64,000 bases of DNA from Bdellovibrio sp. (GTDB taxonomy: Bacteria; Bdellovibrionota; Bdellovibrionia; Bdellovibrionales; Bdellovibrionaceae): contig JAKFCY010000002.1 of the NCBI GenBank assembly GCA_036676395.1, positions 1,696,001-1,760,000 on the forward strand. Direction: 5' to 3'. The notes under the pieces were generated by a model. That model made no database searches. It saw only the letters and a list, made by a program, of their open reading frames with translations, and was not told the origin of the DNA. Position numbers and translations under genes: made by a program. How positions within the stretch are numbered: position 1 is the stretch's first letter; each line of letters begins with the position of its first letter. Of the stretch, positions 15,601 through 27,123 are shown in pieces.

Positions 15601-15616
15601 TGGCGCCCAGGTTGCT
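15601..15616 (+). promoter_or_regulatory. Sigma54-type promoter of the exported kinase-like gene
   Basis: TGGCGCCCAGGTTGCT, followed by AAGGAG SD and ATG 15670. Confidence 0.7.
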
Positions 15617-15669
15617 TTTATCTAAAAGCAGCGGCACAGAAGAATTAAAGCCCTATAAGGAGTTATGCT

Positions 15670-17106
15670 ATGAACGCAAAATTGTCAGTCTTGGCCTTAA
15701 TAGTACTTGTCGTATCTTTACCAGCTTTATCTGGCCAGCCCCGTGGACAGGTTTTTTCATTTAAAAGCCCCTTAGGACAAACTGAACAATGTATCAATTT
15801 AGATCACATTCCTGAAGGCACTTTTTCTAAAAAAGACTTAAAAAAAGAATCTGAATTGTGCGCCATAGATTTTTACGCATCAGCAATTGCTCTATGCCCT
15901 AAAACTTGGGGCACATCTCCAGCCCTTATTCTTTACCCTAACGATTCAGGTTTAAGCTCTGAAAATTTTGAAGCTAAAAACTGTCTTAAAGGTGATGAAC
16001 CAAAAGGAACAGAAATTCCTATCGAAAAAATCGCTAAGATTAAATTTTCTATGAACGATGCTTCGACAAGTGCTACTTATTCACGGGCATCCTTTTTATA
16101 TTACCAGCTGGCACGCTATTTTGATGTGTCGGTGGATGTACCTGTAGCAGTTTACCGCTCAATGGACAAAACGGTTCATTACAATAGAATTACTTCAAAA
16201 GTAAAAGATAACGGCAAAAAAAATGGAGCCGCCTGGAAAATTTTTGCCCAAGCTGAAAAAAATCCTTCCAGCTATAAATTTACTGATGAGTTATTTACTG
16301 ATGATCGTCAGCAAATTTTTGGTGCGCTACTTGATGGGGGTGGCGATAAATATACGACTGACTTTAATGGTCTGCGCAGCAAGTGGGGTTTGGTGCAAAC
16401 TCAGGAATTTATGAACACGGCGCCATTTCAGGCTTTACGTTCTGAATTGAATCTGCAACAAGCCATCACTCAAGGCGAAAAACTAGCGCGCGCAAATTCA
16501 AGAATGAACACAGACTTAGGCAGCTCTCTTTCTCCCGCGCAAATGATCACATGGATGAAAGAAATTTCTGAAATTACTTTATTAGATCACTTATTAGGTC
16601 AACAGGACCGCGTCGGCAATATTCATTACAAATGGCACTGGGTTTGGGTGCAAAACGGCCTTGTTGAATCTAAAAAAGCTGATCTCAAAGATCAACCGCG
16701 CCCAAATGTGATTGGTAAAATCAAGCCGCCGGCAGAGCTTGCGGCATTTAACCCGATCTTAATTCAAAAAACTAAAATTGTTGATAACGATGCGGCCCTA
16801 AAAACAAATTATAAAAGTTTTGGCAAAGTGGCTGGGCATTTAGTTTCGTTACGCCATTACAATGCTAAAATTTATCAAAAACTAATGGCACTTGATCATG
16901 ATTTTAAAGCCAAAGGCCCAATCTACAGTTATATTGCCAACACCTTTAACTTAACAGCTTCTGAAGTTGCGCAGCTGGTAGCTAACACTCAAGATGCCGC
17001 TAACATCTTAAGATCAACGTGCAAAGCCGGTAAATTACAATTTGATTTAAAACCAGAAAAATTTATTCTGGGCCAACCAACGACGGACACGGTTTCTTGC
17101 GATTAG
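15670..17106 (+). CDS. Exported atypical kinase-like protein (FAM20/Four-jointed-like motifs)
   Basis: Signal peptide; [13 protein letters not shown]...[23 protein letters not shown]. Confidence 0.6.
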
Positions 17107-21045: not shown

Positions 21046-21930
21046 ATGTCAGCGCTTGCACCCTATTTGCATCAATGGATCGATCGTTTTCTTGTGCCCA
21101 TTGATGATCCGACTTCAAGACTATTTCACTTGAATCTATTATTCTGCGTGGGCTTTGTTTTTTTATGGGCTTTGCTGATCAAAAAAAGAGCCCTAAAAAA
21201 AGTGCTTCGCTGGAATTACGTTCGTTTACTATTTTTCTCTAAAAACTACTGGTGGAACAAATCCAGCAAAACTGATTATAAGATCTACACCTTAAATTCG
21301 TTATTAAAAATTTTTATTTTTATTCCTTTTTTAGATGGCACCTTCCATATCTCGATGTTTCTGATACGCAGGTTACAAGATATTTTTTCGGATTATTCAG
21401 CCTTAGCCGTCACCACGCAGAGTCTGTTTTTTTTCACACTGGCATTTTTTATTTTCGACGACTTTATTCGTTTTATTCATCACTATTTTATGCATCGTAT
21501 TCCCTGGTTATGGAAATTTCACGCCATTCACCATTCAGCAACAACACTGACACCCATTACTCTTTACCGCACGCACCCCGTTGAGTCTGCCATCGCCACG
21601 GTTCGTAACAGCTTGAGCTTAGGCTTGGCCACGGGTGTTTTTGTATTTTTATTTCAATCACAGTTAACCATGACGACACTTTTGGGTGTTAATTTTTTTG
21701 GTTTTGCTTTTAACCTGCTTGGAAGCAATTTGCGCCATAGCCATATTGATTTTTCTTTTGGCCCGCTTGAAAGAATTTTTGTTAGCCCCAAACAACATCA
21801 AATACATCACTCAGATAACCCTATCCACTTTGACAGTAACTTTGGTGTTTCACTGTCTATTTGGGATCAGTGGTTTAAAACATACATCTCGTCTAATAAG
21901 GTGAAAAAAATACGCTTTGGCCTAGGCTAA
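21046..21930 (+). CDS. Sterol desaturase / fatty-acid hydroxylase family membrane di-metal enzyme
   Basis: His boxes HYFMH, HAIHH, LRHSH, HQIHH; NFG...WD. Confidence 0.88.
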   Translation: MSALAPYLHQWIDRFLVPIDDPTSRLFHLNLLFCVGFVFLWALLIKKRALKKVLRWNYVRLLFFSKNYWWNKSSKTDYKIYTLNSLLKIFIFIPFLDGTFHISMFLIRRLQDIFSDYSALAVTTQSLFFFTLAFFIFDDFIRFIHHYFMHRIPWLWKFHAIHHSATTLTPITLYRTHPVESAIATVRNSLSLGLATGVFVFLFQSQLTMTTLLGVNFFGFAFNLLGSNLRHSHIDFSFGPLERIFVSPKQHQIHHSDNPIHFDSNFGVSLSIWDQWFKTYISSNKVKKIRFGLG

Positions 21931-22062
21931 GTTTCATTTCATTTTCATCTAGCTATCAGAATGCTTTCAAACACCTGATAAATGCAGTTAATGGTGTCGC
22001 TTTTTACATTCTCCCTCTAATAGAAGAGCGTCCATTCAAACAACGACTAAACAGGAGACTCT

Positions 22063-23043
22063 ATGAAAAAGGCTTTCTTAATCGCCGCATTACTTTGCAC
22101 GCAATCAGCTTTCGCTGATTTAACAATCTACACTGACCGTGTAACAGCTAACTTACAACCGATTGCCAACGCATTCACAGCTCGCACTGGCGAGAAAGTG
22201 ACTATCGTTGAATTAGCCTACCCAGCATTAAAAGCCCGCATCGAAAGCGAAAAAGAAACTTCTCCTGCTGATTTGATCTTCGTAAAAGATTTAATCTACT
22301 TAAACGAACTTTCTAATTTAGGTCATTTCAAACCTTTCGCAGCAGATCTTGCAGCTTCGGTTCCAGAACAAATGCGCAGCAGCTCTAATCTTTGGACGGC
22401 AATTTCTTTTCGCGTAAGATCGCTTGTTTACAACGCGACTTCTGTAAACCCGAACGAAATCCAATCGTACGAAGATTTAGCGACGGCTAAATGGGCTGGC
22501 CGAGTTTGTGTAAGATCTGGAAGCCATGCTTACAACCAAGCTTTAGTTTCTTCATTTGTTCACAATATGGGTGCAGAAAAAACTACTTCGTTTTTAACTT
22601 CATTATTAGAAAATTTATCGGTTGATCCGATGTCTAGCGACCGTGCGGTTATTGATGCGATCGCATCAGGTGTATGTGATGTTGGTTTTGTGAATCACTA
22701 CTATTTAGCTCCATATGTTGCTGCAAACCCAGCCTTCGTTGTTAAAATGGCTTTCTTAAACCAGGGTTCAACGGGCGTACACACAAACGGAGCCGGAATC
22801 GGTATCTACAAAGCTTCAAAAAACCAGGCTTCAGCTGAACAATTTATTTCGTTGTTATTAGAAGACCAAACACAATTAGACTGGTCTGCCAATCATTACG
22901 ACTACCCAGCTAAAGCTAACTTAATCCCGTCTACTTTAATCAAAGACTGGGGTATGTTTAAAACTGAACAAGCTTCTTGGGAGACTTTAGGAAAAAGCTT
23001 ACCCGCTGCTTTAAAAATTATTTCTGATGTTCAGTACAAATAA
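22063..23043 (+). CDS. Fe(III) ABC substrate-binding protein (FutA/FbpA-like)
   Basis: Signal peptide; LTIYTDR, SPADL, YNQAL, VNHYY di-Tyr motif. Confidence 0.85.
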   Translation: MKKAFLIAALLCTQSAFADLTIYTDRVTANLQPIANAFTARTGEKVTIVELAYPALKARIESEKETSPADLIFVKDLIYLNELSNLGHFKPFAADLAASVPEQMRSSSNLWTAISFRVRSLVYNATSVNPNEIQSYEDLATAKWAGRVCVRSGSHAYNQALVSSFVHNMGAEKTTSFLTSLLENLSVDPMSSDRAVIDAIASGVCDVGFVNHYYLAPYVAANPAFVVKMAFLNQGSTGVHTNGAGIGIYKASKNQASAEQFISLLLEDQTQLDWSANHYDYPAKANLIPSTLIKDWGMFKTEQASWETLGKSLPAALKIISDVQYK

Positions 23044-23626
23044 GTTTAATTTATACATTCTGACTTCCCTGACGGCGCACATAATCTGTGCGTCGTTTTT
23101 GCTTTTGCAAAAAGGCGGTTTTCAGCAAGTAAATAATGATATTACTGAAATGGTGAATATTGTTATTCATCAATCAAGCAAACCATTTACGAATCCACAC
23201 CGTCCCGAAAAAGTAAAACCACAACCTGCGATTGCAAACACAGATAAAAACTCAATCGCCACCGAAGAAAAGACTGTGGCAACAAGCATGGCATCTGCGC
23301 CATCCAGCGACGGCGGCCAAATCGGCCGTTTAGCTAAAACTACTGAAGAAATTTACATCGCAGAGCTAAAATACGATCTTGAAAAAAGAAAAAAATATCC
23401 CGTTATGGCTAGAAAAATGGGTCACACTGGCCGCGTGACTATTAAATTTATTATCGATCGCCAGGGCAAAATTATTCAAAGCGAAATTTTAGAACCCTCG
23501 CAACATGTTAGCCTAAATGATTCTGTTAAAAAATTACTCAGTGAAACTAAAAACTTTAAACCCTTACCTGAAGAAATTCAGCGCGCGACCTGGCAATTTA
23601 TTTTGCCCGTTGAATTTAAACTATAG
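23027..23626 (+). CDS. tonB: TonB family energy transducer
   Basis: N-terminal TM with SLTAH, C-terminal YPVMAR..GHTGRVTIKFII...LPVEFKL. Confidence 0.85.
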   Translation: MFSTNKFNLYILTSLTAHIICASFLLLQKGGFQQVNNDITEMVNIVIHQSSKPFTNPHRPEKVKPQPAIANTDKNSIATEEKTVATSMASAPSSDGGQIGRLAKTTEEIYIAELKYDLEKRKKYPVMARKMGHTGRVTIKFIIDRQGKIIQSEILEPSQHVSLNDSVKKLLSETKNFKPLPEEIQRATWQFILPVEFKL

Positions 23627-23647
23627 CGATTTACAAAAGGAGATTTT

Positions 23648-24949
23648 ATGCCTGTTAAAAAATCAATGATTATTCTGTTAGCGCTAGCACTTACTCTTAC
23701 CGCTTGCAGTGATTTTTTTAATAAAAAAACTCAAGCTATAGCAAAAGCACAAGATCAAACCGGGCAAAATGAAAAACCTGACATTAATCCTTTTCCTGGT
23801 GCTTTTGAAGAGCCTACTGTCGGTCTGTTTTCAGAAGAAAAATTACTTCTTAATACGGGCCTGAATGTCATTGCTCCAATCACCGAAAACTTTGCCCAAG
23901 AAATGCAGATTTTTTCTCTTCGTTTGCAACAGGCTTGCCGCACGACCGGAACACTTACCCCGGCGCTTGTTCAGCAATGGGAACAGGTCGTCATCAGTTT
24001 TCACAAAGTGGATGCTTTATCACTAGGGCCAATCCTTGAAATCAATCCAGACACAAAACTAGATATTAAATCAAGACTCTACAGCTGGCCGGTGACAAAC
24101 TTATGCCGCACCGACAAGGCCGTTTACGATATTTCAATGACTGGTCAAATTTCTGAAGCTCTACCTTACAATTCGCAAGGCCTAGATGCTCTTGAATATT
24201 TGCTGTTTGCTAGCACTGATTCAGTAAAATGTAATTTAAAAGCCAACCCGCAGCTTAAAGACTGGCTGGCTTTACCACAAGCTACAAAAATTAAAAATCG
24301 CTGTGACATGGCCGCACTTTTAGCTTCAGACTTATCAGAATTATCTTTAACTTTAAAAAATAGATGGGATCGCCAAAAAGGCAATTACTCTAAAACTTTG
24401 GTGGATGGCTCTAAATACGCAAACCATAAAGTAGCTATCAACGAAATTACAAATGCCTTATATGCTTTAGAAACTGTGAAAGATATCCGTCTAGGCGTGC
24501 CTACTGGCAAAAATAAAAAAGAATGTACAACTGGTAAATGCCCTGAACGCACTGAACATGTTTATTCGAATCAGGCTTTTACGGCTATTCAAGCCCGCCT
24601 TGAAATATTTAAATTAGGATTTTTTGGTGGCGCTCCTGAATCCCTAAATTCATTTGGTATTGATGATTACTTAAAATTAGCTGGCCATGCTGAAATTGCA
24701 GAAAAAATTAATCGTTACATCATTCGGGCTGAAGTTAATTTAGCGGCGCTTAAAGCACAGGGTGACTTACAAACACTTGCGGCCAATATTGACCCCGCAC
24801 AATGCAGTGCTTCGACCGCAGATAACCGCGGTGAAGAGCTTTGCAGCCTATACGAAGATATTCGCGCGATCACAACGACTATGAAAACCGAAGTACTTGT
24901 TGCGCTATCGCTAAATGCTCCACCGATTTACCAAGGTGATAACGACTAA
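23648..24949 (+). CDS. Imelysin family lipoprotein
   Basis: Lipobox LTAC; YSWP, QGLDALEYLLF, C-terminal GDND. Confidence 0.85.
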   Translation: MPVKKSMIILLALALTLTACSDFFNKKTQAIAKAQDQTGQNEKPDINPFPGAFEEPTVGLFSEEKLLLNTGLNVIAPITENFAQEMQIFSLRLQQACRTTGTLTPALVQQWEQVVISFHKVDALSLGPILEINPDTKLDIKSRLYSWPVTNLCRTDKAVYDISMTGQISEALPYNSQGLDALEYLLFASTDSVKCNLKANPQLKDWLALPQATKIKNRCDMAALLASDLSELSLTLKNRWDRQKGNYSKTLVDGSKYANHKVAINEITNALYALETVKDIRLGVPTGKNKKECTTGKCPERTEHVYSNQAFTAIQARLEIFKLGFFGGAPESLNSFGIDDYLKLAGHAEIAEKINRYIIRAEVNLAALKAQGDLQTLAANIDPAQCSASTADNRGEELCSLYEDIRAITTTMKTEVLVALSLNAPPIYQGDND

Positions 24950-27123
24950 TGAAAAAGATTTTCTTTTGTCTGTTATTCGGATTTTACAGTAGCCTTGGGT
25001 TTTCGCAAGAAGCGACCAAGCTTTCAACTTTAGAAATTAGCGATGTGATGGTTGATGATATCGATAATGGTTTTTCTTCGAAGAAAATTTCTAAAAGCCG
25101 TTTAAAAAACATCTCAACAACCGATGTCGCACGCGCCTTAAAAGAGTCTCCGGGGGTCTACGTTCGTGAAGAAGACGGTTTAGGTCTTAGACCAAATATC
25201 GGTCTGCGCGGAACAAATCCCGATCGAAGTAAAAAAGTTGTTATTCTGGAAGACAATGTCTTAATTGGCCCAGCCCCCTATTCAGCACCTGCAGCTTATT
25301 ACACACCTTCAATGCTAACCACAGAGTCTTTAGAAGTTTTCAAAGGTTTTACCGCACTTCCGTACGGGCCAAATTCAATTGGTGGTGCTGTTAATTATAA
25401 AACACCAGACTACATCGACATCAATAAAACAACCGCCGATGTCACATTCGGAAGTTATTCAACGCGTGTATTAAAACTTGGCTTAAATCACAAAGTTTCT
25501 GATTACGGCGTGGTTCTTATCTATGGCCGCTCGCAATCTGATGGTTTTAAAGAATTAGATTCAGGCAAAGCAACTGGTTTTAACCAGAATCATGTTCTTT
25601 TAAAAGTTCAGCGCCCTTTTGACATTTCAGGACACACTCATCTTTTTGAAATGCGCTTAGGTTATGGCAATGAAGATTCGCATGAAACTTATTTAGGCCT
25701 GACTGAAACAGATTTTTTAAACAAACCCTACCGTCGCTACAATGCTTCTGAATTAGACCAGATGAAGTGGAATCATAAAAAAATCCAACTTGAACATCTT
25801 ACTGAAATCGGAACAGCTGCAAATATTAAGACTACATTTTACCATCATGAGTTTGCGCGAACTTGGTATCGTTTAGATGGTTTTCGCGACGCTACTAAAA
25901 TTATTCGTAATATTTTAAAAGACCCATCAGGCACAAACCAACCCTTTTATGATGTGCTATCTGCGCGCGAAGATTCAAGCAATGTTGGCGCCAATGCTGA
26001 CTTGTTGATGGCTAATAATGACCGTGAATACTTAAGCCAAGGTTTACAAAGTCAGATCGAAATTAATAATATTTGGTCTGCAGAAATTGAATCTATAACC
26101 CATATTAAGTTTTTGCTTCACCGTGATCAAATTAATCGTCAGCACGATGCAGACTATTATTCAATGACTGGTGGTTCGATGGTTCGCACAGCCGATCAAC
26201 GCATAGCTACAGCCCGCAATAAAGAAAGTGCGCAAGCGATTGCAGTCAGTGCGCAAGATAAAACTCGTCTTGGCCAATTTACTTTACTGCCGCAGTTTCG
26301 TTATGAATCAGTCACTTTTGATTTTGACGATAGTTTAAATAGCCGCAGTAAAAAAAGAACCGATTCGATTTTTATACCAGGTTTTGGTTTAGCTTATGCG
26401 ATCAACGAATCACTGATCACGCGTGTGTCAGCCAATAAAGCCGCTACACTATCAGGCCTTGATTCATTAGGTAAAGAATCTCGCGAAGAAAGTTTAAACA
26501 AAGAAATCTCGGTAGCTTGGCAATCAAAACTACGCCAAGAGCAATTTGAAATTTTATACTTTCATAATGACTATGACAATATTACCGGAACCTGTACGGC
26601 ATCGACTGGGTGTTCAAGCCTGCAACTTGACCAGCAGTATGATGGTGGCCAAGCCCTTATCTCTGGAGTCGAAGCGCGAGCTTCTAAAGGGCTGCAATGG
26701 AACAAGTTTTGGATTCCGTTACAGCTTAACTACACTGTTATTGATAGCCATTTTGCTGATAGTTTTAATTCAACAAATACTGAATGGGGTGTGGGCCAGG
26801 TGAACTCTGGCGACCCTCTGCCTTATGTTCCGCAAACACAAATGACAGCTATTGTTGGCCTTGAAGCTGGGCGCTTAAAACAAAGTTTGATCATCAATCA
26901 TTTCGGAAAAATGTATGATCAAGCCGCAGAAGCAGGTCGTTTAGAAATACCAAGTTATGGGTTAGTCGACTACACCGCTCAATACGCCGCAAGCCAAAAA
27001 CTTAGTTTACGTTTAAAGTTAGATAATATCTTTAATAAACAATATACAGCGGCCATAAAACCTTTTGGCTACCGCCCTGGCAAGCCGTTCACGGCAGCAT
27101 TAGGCTTAACTTACGATTTCTGA
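24949..27123 (+). CDS. TonB-dependent receptor (FecA-like)
   Basis: PGVYVREEDGLGLRPNIGLRG plug, GGAVNY, NIFNKQY, C-terminal YDF; TAATG coupling to imelysin. Confidence 0.93.
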   Translation: MKKIFFCLLFGFYSSLGFSQEATKLSTLEISDVMVDDIDNGFSSKKISKSRLKNISTTDVARALKESPGVYVREEDGLGLRPNIGLRGTNPDRSKKVVILEDNVLIGPAPYSAPAAYYTPSMLTTESLEVFKGFTALPYGPNSIGGAVNYKTPDYIDINKTTADVTFGSYSTRVLKLGLNHKVSDYGVVLIYGRSQSDGFKELDSGKATGFNQNHVLLKVQRPFDISGHTHLFEMRLGYGNEDSHETYLGLTETDFLNKPYRRYNASELDQMKWNHKKIQLEHLTEIGTAANIKTTFYHHEFARTWYRLDGFRDATKIIRNILKDPSGTNQPFYDVLSAREDSSNVGANADLLMANNDREYLSQGLQSQIEINNIWSAEIESITHIKFLLHRDQINRQHDADYYSMTGGSMVRTADQRIATARNKESAQAIAVSAQDKTRLGQFTLLPQFRYESVTFDFDDSLNSRSKKRTDSIFIPGFGLAYAINESLITRVSANKAATLSGLDSLGKESREESLNKEISVAWQSKLRQEQFEILYFHNDYDNITGTCTASTGCSSLQLDQQYDGGQALISGVEARASKGLQWNKFWIPLQLNYTVIDSHFADSFNSTNTEWGVGQVNSGDPLPYVPQTQMTAIVGLEAGRLKQSLIINHFGKMYDQAAEAGRLEIPSYGLVDYTAQYAASQKLSLRLKLDNIFNKQYTAAIKPFGYRPGKPFTAALGLTYDF

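Follow-up and report, generated by a model that had tools for sequence, protein, structure and literature searches.

What an exported protein with the features of a kinase may do outside the cytoplasm is the question raised by a gene in a 64,000-nucleotide stretch of DNA from Bdellovibrio sp. (assembly GCA_036676395.1, contig JAKFCY010000002.1, positions 1,696,001 to 1,760,000 of the forward strand; this whole stretch is called the window, and positions are counted from its first letter). The periplasm is generally held to be without ATP, and phosphorylation in that compartment in the absence of ATP is an open question. The gene encodes a protein of 478 amino acids to which searches of NCBIfam, PDB sequences and Pfam assigned no family, and whose relatives form a family that is so far without a name. 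Its leader points to export, and its predicted structure places it in the FAM20/Four-jointed/PI4K-II group. From sequence, gene context and a structural model we suggest that it could be an envelope kinase, working in a module with phosphatase-like partners and with an exported phosphate donor, either ATP or polyphosphate, and we put the probability of this reading at roughly one in two.

The AlphaFold model of the protein has a mean predicted local distance difference test score (pLDDT) of 93.6 and a predicted template modelling score (pTM) of 0.92, and FAM20 chains lead in all three fold searches carried out with it. The top ten rows of Foldseek are all FAM20 chains, with E values from 1.1e-4 (Fam20A) to 5.6e-4. 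The wide structure search VIA, with which a further search agrees, ranks Hydra Fam20 first (Z 16.8, root-mean-square deviation 4.1, 283 residues aligned), with Fam20C at 15.6–16.0 and DrFam20C1 at 15.8, then ceFam20 and PI4KIIa at 14.5, CtkA at 11.8, HipT at 11.0, actin-fragmin kinase at 10.4 and CotH at 9.0. The PI4KIIa match (root-mean-square deviation 4.7, 263 residues aligned) lies 2.3 Z units below the best FAM20 chain, and Fam20A, first by Foldseek, stands below the active FAM20s by VIA (Z 12.7–13.0). In the Atlas, which serves as a lead only, the homologue P0079 is nearest to unnamed clusters, followed by a bacterial PF06702 cluster (0.91) and an FJX1 cluster (0.86). A preliminary description of this DNA, made from its letters, had proposed an exported FAM20-like kinase with four motifs in kinase order, and the predicted fold, together with the leader discussed below, agrees with that proposal: the fold is kinase-like, the DR and DN motifs are nearly invariant among homologues, and all four motifs are found, i.e. 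AKIK (K125), residues 140–163, residues 302–317 and KIVDND (369–374).

Sequence profiles place the protein outside the named families. PF06702, the profile of FAM20, did not match it, and the best score among 85 family members was a single one at E 0.041; a search of the genome with this profile at E≤10 was also without match, with the search controls equally blank, and across the phylum one of 301 genomes has a PF06702 match, in a different protein. The latter, from a genome of the same genus (L121, 910–2334, + strand), is a compact kinase with its alphaC Glu intact and a phmmer match to human Fam20A at E 7e-7. The CotH profile PF08757 found other loci in the window's genome and not this gene (E≤1), and PF00454 gave no match to the protein in the Pfam scan. 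A match of residues 406–472 to the HRDLKPEN motif of phosphorylase kinase (E 0.007) was gone with a more diverse profile and was taken as chance. The protein is like a FAM20 in its predicted fold and core residues, but without a PF06702 score and without the acidic residue of the FAM20 loop it falls outside FAM20 in the defined sense.

The family to which it does belong is one of several hundred proteins, judging by homologue searches that returned 348 proteins and, separately, 434 representatives at 50% clustering. These are named only as hypothetical or uncharacterised, with one UniRef label reading 'periplasmic protein', and no description of the kinase family was found in the open-licence PMC and bioRxiv literature. 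The family alignment comprises 209 of 266 proteins, those of 400–560 amino acids. Equivalences with FAM20 residues follow from motif register rather than residue-level structural superposition, the FAM20 sequences having been obtained by aligning L121 to PDB chains.

The active site revealed by this alignment is well conserved and at the same time unusual. Equivalents of the catalytic and the metal-binding Asp, as first suggested, are present in D313 (206 of 209) and D372 (207 of 209). The earlier suggestion that the alphaC Glu is replaced by Ser also stands (S141), but the Gln of Fam20A with which it was compared occupies another position, where it replaces Glu306, the Glu of the beta3–alphaC loop that is essential in FAM20C (PMC5865150). 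In the family both the acidic residue of this loop (Glu306 in Fam20C, Asp152 in Hydra Fam20) and the alphaC Glu are missing: position 136 is Thr in 161 and Ser in 35 of the 209 sequences, with Glu possible in at most two, and position 141 is Ser in 124, Ala in 28, Ile in 27 and Pro in 15, with Glu possible in at most one. Two other positions, K78 (205/209), an invariant specific to the family, and T82 (200/209), are conserved. It can thus be asked whether the protein is a pseudokinase, i.e. a scaffold or sensor that binds nucleotides or polyphosphate, or the catalyst of a transfer reaction other than that of a kinase. The loss of both ion-pair glutamates, the lack of conservation at the FAM20 beta2 Lys position, the degeneracy of an Arg-less partner protein discussed below and the general view of the periplasm as free of ATP would fit this idea. 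We nevertheless consider it quite unlikely, since each of K125, D313, N317, D372 and D374 is retained by 204 or more of the 209 sequences, even where identity is as low as about 25%, since bacterial families without an identifiable E91 have been classed as kinases (PMC9758233), and since a Thiothrix lineage retains the enzyme after loss of its leader. Because the glutamates are lost family-wide and all other parts of the active site show strict conservation, their absence does not mark the window protein alone as a pseudokinase; the invariant K78 and D374 may compensate for them. A well-conserved bacterial branch of the FAM20/Four-jointed group that kept the catalytic core and lost the Glu essential in FAM20C bears on the practice of calling pseudokinases from sequence.

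Several features point to a function outside the cytoplasm. The signal peptide that had been postulated corresponds to a hydrophobic stretch at about residues 1–21 (KD9 3.83, a heuristic measure), and such leaders are common in the family, being found in 181 of 187 members with a leader of at least 22 residues against 56 of 1045 control windows. The cysteines of the window protein are at positions 41, 64, 76, 105, 451 and 477, four of them within the N-terminal 105 residues; in FAM20 proteins four disulfides of the C-lobe are conserved. Two family members (P0222 and P0260) are fused to bacterial SH3_3 domains, which are of a cell-wall-binding type. Another (P0223) is fused with DUF2252, and exported DUF2252-like proteins adjoin the kinase at L087, L090, L131, L154 and L162. 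No fusion proteins of 897–2560 amino acids were found, which is weak evidence.

The gene neighbourhood was analysed for the best 80 of 250 confirmed GTDB loci, 10 of them from Bdellovibrionota, 2 unassigned and 68 from other bacteria, including the Roseobacter group (e.g. Ruegeria), Thiothrix, Chromatiales, Desulfobulbaceae, Acidobacteriota and Gemmatimonadota; in this sample the closest relatives are thus mostly from non-predatory bacteria. Neighbours within about 6 kb were grouped by clustering of open reading frames and recounted by six-frame searches with profiles derived from the same loci. A metallophosphoesterase gene occurs at 58 loci, a PTP-like gene at 41, a DUF4956-like gene at 31, an SdiA-regulated propeller gene at 29, an exported PPDK-like gene at 5 and a TLC-like carrier gene at 4 (Pfam identities PF00149, PF06977, PF01326 and PF03219), and at least one of these is present at 64 of the 80. 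In a FastTree tree of the loci, for which long-branch warnings were given, the metallophosphoesterase link extends over five phyla. By a loose test the partners have hydrophobic leaders throughout (39/39, 37/37 and 27/27). The PTP-like partner has the predicted fold of a dual-specificity phosphatase (Z 13.0 with VHZ, 12.7 with Siw14), and its loop HCxxGxH-S/A-S keeps the catalytic Cys and has Ser or Ala in place of the Arg of CX5R. This exported family without the CX5R Arg, seen for instance at L053 (5265–5909) and in its relatives, has two copies in the window's genome, one of which lies beside the paralogue at L001.

Leader, six cysteines and a partner gene occur together at 62 of the 80 loci. 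All eight members of a Thiothrix/Thiolinea clade (L011, L012, L017, L028, L030, L031, L049 and L059) are without the leader, at least one Cys and the partner genes, and they are a probable cytoplasmic version of the kinase; this pattern, which is that of one lineage, fits a need for the partners only outside the cytoplasm. Since the relatives are mostly non-predators and usually lie beside phosphatase-like, and often beside polyphosphate-export-like genes, the likely target is in the bacterium's own envelope and not in prey.

The same neighbours could also suggest that the protein is an enzyme of phosphate or nucleotide turnover, which in the periplasm shuttles phosphate groups between small molecules and polyphosphate or nucleotides, or hydrolyses such compounds, with the phosphoesterase making phosphate available to the starving cell. 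The phosphoesterase and VTC genes would suit such a role, and so would those for the phytase-like propeller and the PPDK-like and TLC-like proteins, the Siw14 match of the PTP-like partner, which is tied with that to VHZ, and the expression of homologues, which is higher during the attack phase, when cells starve, than during host-independent growth (PMC2797640). We hold this to be unlikely, as the closest folds are those of protein, glycan and lipid kinases and the SH3_3 fusions point to an envelope target. Furthermore, no Pho-box enrichment was found upstream, where 2 of 79 loci lie within 3 mismatches of the consensus and 2.4 were expected.

Possible clues to the phosphate donor of an envelope kinase come from the Bdellovibrionota loci. 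These form a sample of 55, in which two duplicate named loci occur and one locus has no kinase in the list of open reading frames. PTP-like genes are present at 21, VTC at 16, HlyD-propeller at 16, DUF4956 at 15, phosphoesterase at 11 and DUF2252 at 3, with a core partner at 33 of the 55. At 16 the kinase gene adjoins an operon for a VTC polyphosphate polymerase, DUF4956 and an exporter, and this link appears at four places in the tree, with gene orders that are co-directional (L153 and L175), convergent (L122) or mixed (L147). The window's genome has its VTC operon at C2:1417–1422 kb, about 290 kb from the window copy of the kinase gene. In this operon (L119:7403–11754, – strand, which equals G000:C2:1417.4–1421.8 kb) DUF4956, a HlyD-like adaptor fused to a beta-propeller, an outer-membrane-type protein and VTC polymerase are encoded together. 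It looks like a polyphosphate export apparatus, for which no describing paper was found in the open-licence PMC and bioRxiv literature. VTC as a universal partner had to be rejected, as it is found in none of five genomes outside Bdellovibrionota that carry the kinase. An exported-looking protein of 476 amino acids is encoded directly upstream of paralogue 2 (L001:7521–8951, – strand) and conserved in L093, L103, L163 and L164; by eye it has VTC/CYTH-like motifs, with no Pfam match and no recovery in the PF09359 search.

The preliminary description, which had no word on the phosphatase and polyphosphate gene context conserved in the family or on the two paralogues in the same genome, had also suggested action inside prey cells. 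For the family this is not supported, most close relatives being from non-predators and the homologues of Bdellovibrio bacteriovorus not being induced on prey entry. Strain HD100 of that species has the family member CAE78771.1, which shares 27% identity with the protein encoded in the window. Gene order in closely matching loci and the annotated flanks Bd0816 and Bd0823 (PMC12546842) indicate that it probably corresponds to Bd0822, or possibly to Bd0821, next to the VTC operon; an assignment to Bd0821 with Bd0822 as PTP-like gene was dropped, since the matching locus has no PTP-like gene. A second member is probably Bd2509, because the order of sugE, lplA, phosphoesterase, kinase, DUF1304 and citrate synthase genes at L124 matches Bd2506–2511. 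According to the supplement of PMC2797640, expression of Bd0817–0822 changes 0.94–1.06-fold on prey entry and 0.22–0.44-fold in host-independent growth, and that of Bd2508 and Bd2509 0.81–1.01-fold and 0.30–0.38-fold, respectively. The flanking gene Bd0816 goes up about 5-fold on prey entry and Bd0823/0824 barely change (PMC2797640). None of Bd0817–0822, Bd2508 and Bd2509 is listed in supplement file 3 on the HD100 proteome (PMC12546842). The absence of induction on prey entry is a firmer point than the decrease in host-independent growth.

For the window copy itself, delivery as an effector kinase to the interior of prey or competitor cells, which contain ATP, deserves separate consideration. 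The family is present in 28 of 39 genomes of the window's taxonomic family (which includes a locus identical to the Bdellovibrio sp. HCB337 row), with up to 4 matches per genome, against 49 of 301 in the phylum, and the source genome has three paralogues. The window copy stands alone behind a sigma-54-like site of its own and belongs to a mostly partner-less clade. CtkA is among the fold neighbours (Z 11.8), and attack-phase expression of the homologues (PMC2797640) could mean that the protein is loaded in advance. Still, we regard an effector role as rather improbable in view of the predominance of loci outside Bdellovibrionota (68 of the best 80 of 250, e.g. in Ruegeria, Thiothrix and Desulfobulbaceae), the position of the homologues outside the prey-entry gene set next to an induced Bd0816 (PMC2797640), the six conserved cysteines, which suit an oxidising compartment, and the presence of Nitrosospira and Acidobacteriota rows in the 15-row clade of the window copy. 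In two Nitrosospira-type loci (L043 and L048) family members of different subfamilies stand in tandem behind DUF1800–DUF1501 genes.

The reading of the protein as an envelope kinase in a phosphatase-associated module has to be weighed against a number of observations. In the window's own genome, which is 99% complete, the TLC search gave no match and the partner phosphoesterase has no close counterpart, and the window copy and most of its clade are without adjoining partner genes. The absence of VTC from the five genomes mentioned implies that polyphosphate supply is not universal, and the PTP-like protein, without the Arg of CX5R, may not be a phosphatase. The loci are not independent, since a single clade dominated by Rhodobacterales accounts for 36 of the 80, and at the Roseobacter loci 16 of 18 members score below the Pfam cut-off for DUF4956, the best E value being 1.3e-4. 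Neither of the FAM20 glutamates is present, and Glu306 is essential in FAM20C (PMC5865150). The homologue for which expression was measured is distant (identity given above), 36.7% of all genes decrease in host-independent growth, and so do the flanking genes Bd0815, Bd2506 and Bd2510 (PMC2797640); co-regulation of about three transcription units is therefore suggestive only, with a chance expectation of about 1 in 20.

If the protein is an envelope kinase, its action can be envisaged in four steps. It would be exported by the Sec system and form its disulfides. K125 and K78 would then hold the donor phosphates, D372 and D374 would bind the metal and D313 would act as base, with the extra invariant D374 and K78 standing in for the missing glutamates. 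The donor may be polyphosphate in Bdellovibrio-type loci, made by VTC and leaving the cell via the DUF4956, HlyD-propeller and outer-membrane proteins; in some proteobacterial loci it may be periplasmic ATP, supplied through TLC-like carriers or exported PPDK-like proteins. Finally, reversal or reading of the phosphate mark would fall to the metallophosphoesterase and the Arg-less PTP-fold protein; the substrate that carries the mark could be a protein, glycan or lipid in the periplasm or on the cell surface. The window copy would rely on module components elsewhere in the genome, i.e. the VTC operon and the two PTP-like genes. A more specific version is that Gram-negative bacteria have a reversible extracytoplasmic phosphorylation system in which VTC-made polyphosphate leaves the cell by a channel of DUF4956, HlyD and outer-membrane proteins and is used in place of ATP by a FAM20-like kinase with a remodelled active site, i.e. 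one without the ion-pair Glu and with the extra Lys78 and Asp374, while dedicated exported phosphatases act as erasers. We consider this version speculative and on balance improbable; the evidence for polyphosphate as the driving donor is gene context. If true, such a polyphosphate-powered system would be a bacterial counterpart, and a possible source group, of the Golgi-type secretory kinases. Both B. bacteriovorus, with what are probably the family members Bd0822 and Bd2509, and Ruegeria are harmless and genetically tractable hosts in which the donor question becomes directly testable.

The features of the gene are collected in Table 1. The start at 15601 that was assumed earlier is not a start codon, but the letters there form a promoter-like, sigma-54-like site. 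The 3.4 Mb genome has its pattern TGGCGC-N5-TTGC 19 times, shuffled versions have it 7, 3 and 5 times, and the G018 orthologue retains the site with an altered spacer. The sigma-54 motif, described as good, is thus present and enriched, but it is not shared across the family: control by sigma-54 was not seen family-wide, as 2 of 79 other loci match within one mismatch and 0.66 were expected. Since the gene differs from the G018 orthologue by 65 synonymous and 20 non-synonymous codons, the pattern is that expected of a gene that is maintained. Its description as stand-alone is roughly correct, with a rhomboid gene diverging upstream, but an acyl-CoA dehydrogenase gene begins 43 bp downstream on the same strand, separated by a weak terminator-like hairpin (4 found against 3.4 in shuffles). 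Further along the window (21046–27123) lies a cluster for a sterol-desaturase-like protein, an iron-type ABC binding protein, TonB, an imelysin-like protein and a TonB-dependent receptor, as judged from translations. Elsewhere in the genome a second exported protein with kinase-like motifs, of 483 amino acids and matched by neither Pfam nor NCBIfam (L002:5276–6727, – strand; G000:C2 about 1621.3–1622.7 kb), is encoded divergently from paralogue 3. Its gene has a sigma-54-type site, TGGCAY-N5-TTGC, that is kept in L106, L107, L111 (own genome) and L112, and it remains paired with that paralogue in L106, L107, L112, L165, L166 and L169; it possibly represents another unnamed family of atypical kinases.

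Table 1 Features of the kinase-like gene in the window and the basis of their assignment
Feature	Position	Strand	Basis
Gene for a 478-amino-acid predicted exported FAM20-fold atypical kinase, unnamed family	15670..17106	+	Open reading frame (ATG at 15670, TAG at 17106), predicted fold, codon comparison
Sigma-54-type promoter-like site TGGCGC-N5-TTGC	15601..15615	+	Sequence, genome-wide counts, kept in G018 orthologue
Probable Sec signal peptide, residues 1–21	15670..15732	+	Hydrophobicity heuristic, low-confidence helix 4–15 in model; putative cleavage point
CPKxxSTS/NP loop C76–A85, likely counterpart of the FAM20 GGTQ loop	15895..15924	+	Mapped by eye to ceFam20 GGTQVK
K125, equivalent of the beta3 ATP-binding Lys	16042..16044	+	204/209; strand E122–125 of model
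AlphaC region; T136 and S141 at the positions of the FAM20 loop Glu and alphaC Glu	16069..16158	+	H/Q-x-x-R and VP..R register
Catalytic loop D306-x4-Q311-x-D313-R314-x-G-N317	16585..16620	+	D306 208, Q311 208, D313 206, R314 209, N317 207 of 209; spacing as FAM20 D-F-L-M-G-N-M-D-R
D372-N373-D374 metal-binding motif	16783..16791	+	207, 205 and 207 of 209; FAM20 has DNG/DNA/DHG; third acidic residue family-specific

Among known systems, FAM20 (PF06702) is closest, having in common with the window family the predicted fold, export, and the order and spacing of motifs in the alphaC, catalytic-loop and DN regions. These secretory-pathway kinases, which with Mn and ATP phosphorylate secreted proteins or xylose, include the xylose kinase Fam20B, the casein kinase Fam20C, whose activation depends on dimers, and the pseudokinase Fam20A, which has its loop Glu replaced and binds ATP in an inverted, non-productive way. 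The window family differs in its low identity (11–16%), the lack of equivalents of Glu306 and Glu311, the extra invariant Lys78, its bacterial occurrence with operon partners, and its motifs Gln-x-Asp-Arg-x-Gly-Asn and DND, where FAM20 has Asn-x-Asp-Arg-His-His and DNG. The acidic third residue after DN resembles the DNE motif of Four-jointed; the likeness to Four-jointed/FJX1 is otherwise that of the Atlas listing (0.86, a lead only). Bacterial PF06702-positive proteins, mostly from Myxococcota and including L121 in the window's genus, are FAM20-like as well and form the nearest named Atlas cluster (0.91), but their kinase domains are shorter, and L121 retains the alphaC Glu and has no significant match to the window-family profile. 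One report considers that Myxococcota may be sister to FAM20B (10.64898/2026.05.08.723234). Bacterial members of the FAM20-type structural group are not new in themselves, since Legionella families that cluster with FAM20 and CotH have been reported (PMC9758233). Type II PI4-kinases, CtkA, HipA/HipT and actin-fragmin kinase share the structural group (Z 14.5, 11.8, 11.0 and 10.4) and a DR.GN catalytic loop, but they act in the cytoplasm or on host membranes, score below FAM20 and have no sequence match.

A published parallel is provided by CotH, which in sets with VTC and DUF4956 has been noted beside Gram-positive pel operons, with no function shown or explained in these reports (10.1101/768473; 10.1101/2024.04.20.589940). 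Like the predicted kinase at the 16 Bdellovibrionota loci, CotH is an exported atypical kinase encoded with a VTC polymerase and DUF4956, and the two share a fold group (Z 9.0–9.4). However, the window protein is not PF08757, its genome has two separate CotH genes, and the genes that recur around the kinase loci did not include a pel operon, while the module there has phosphatase-like genes and a HlyD/outer-membrane exporter in addition. With the window family a second, independent exported kinase is found in a VTC/DUF4956 context, this time among Gram-negative bacteria and accompanied by phosphatase-like genes.

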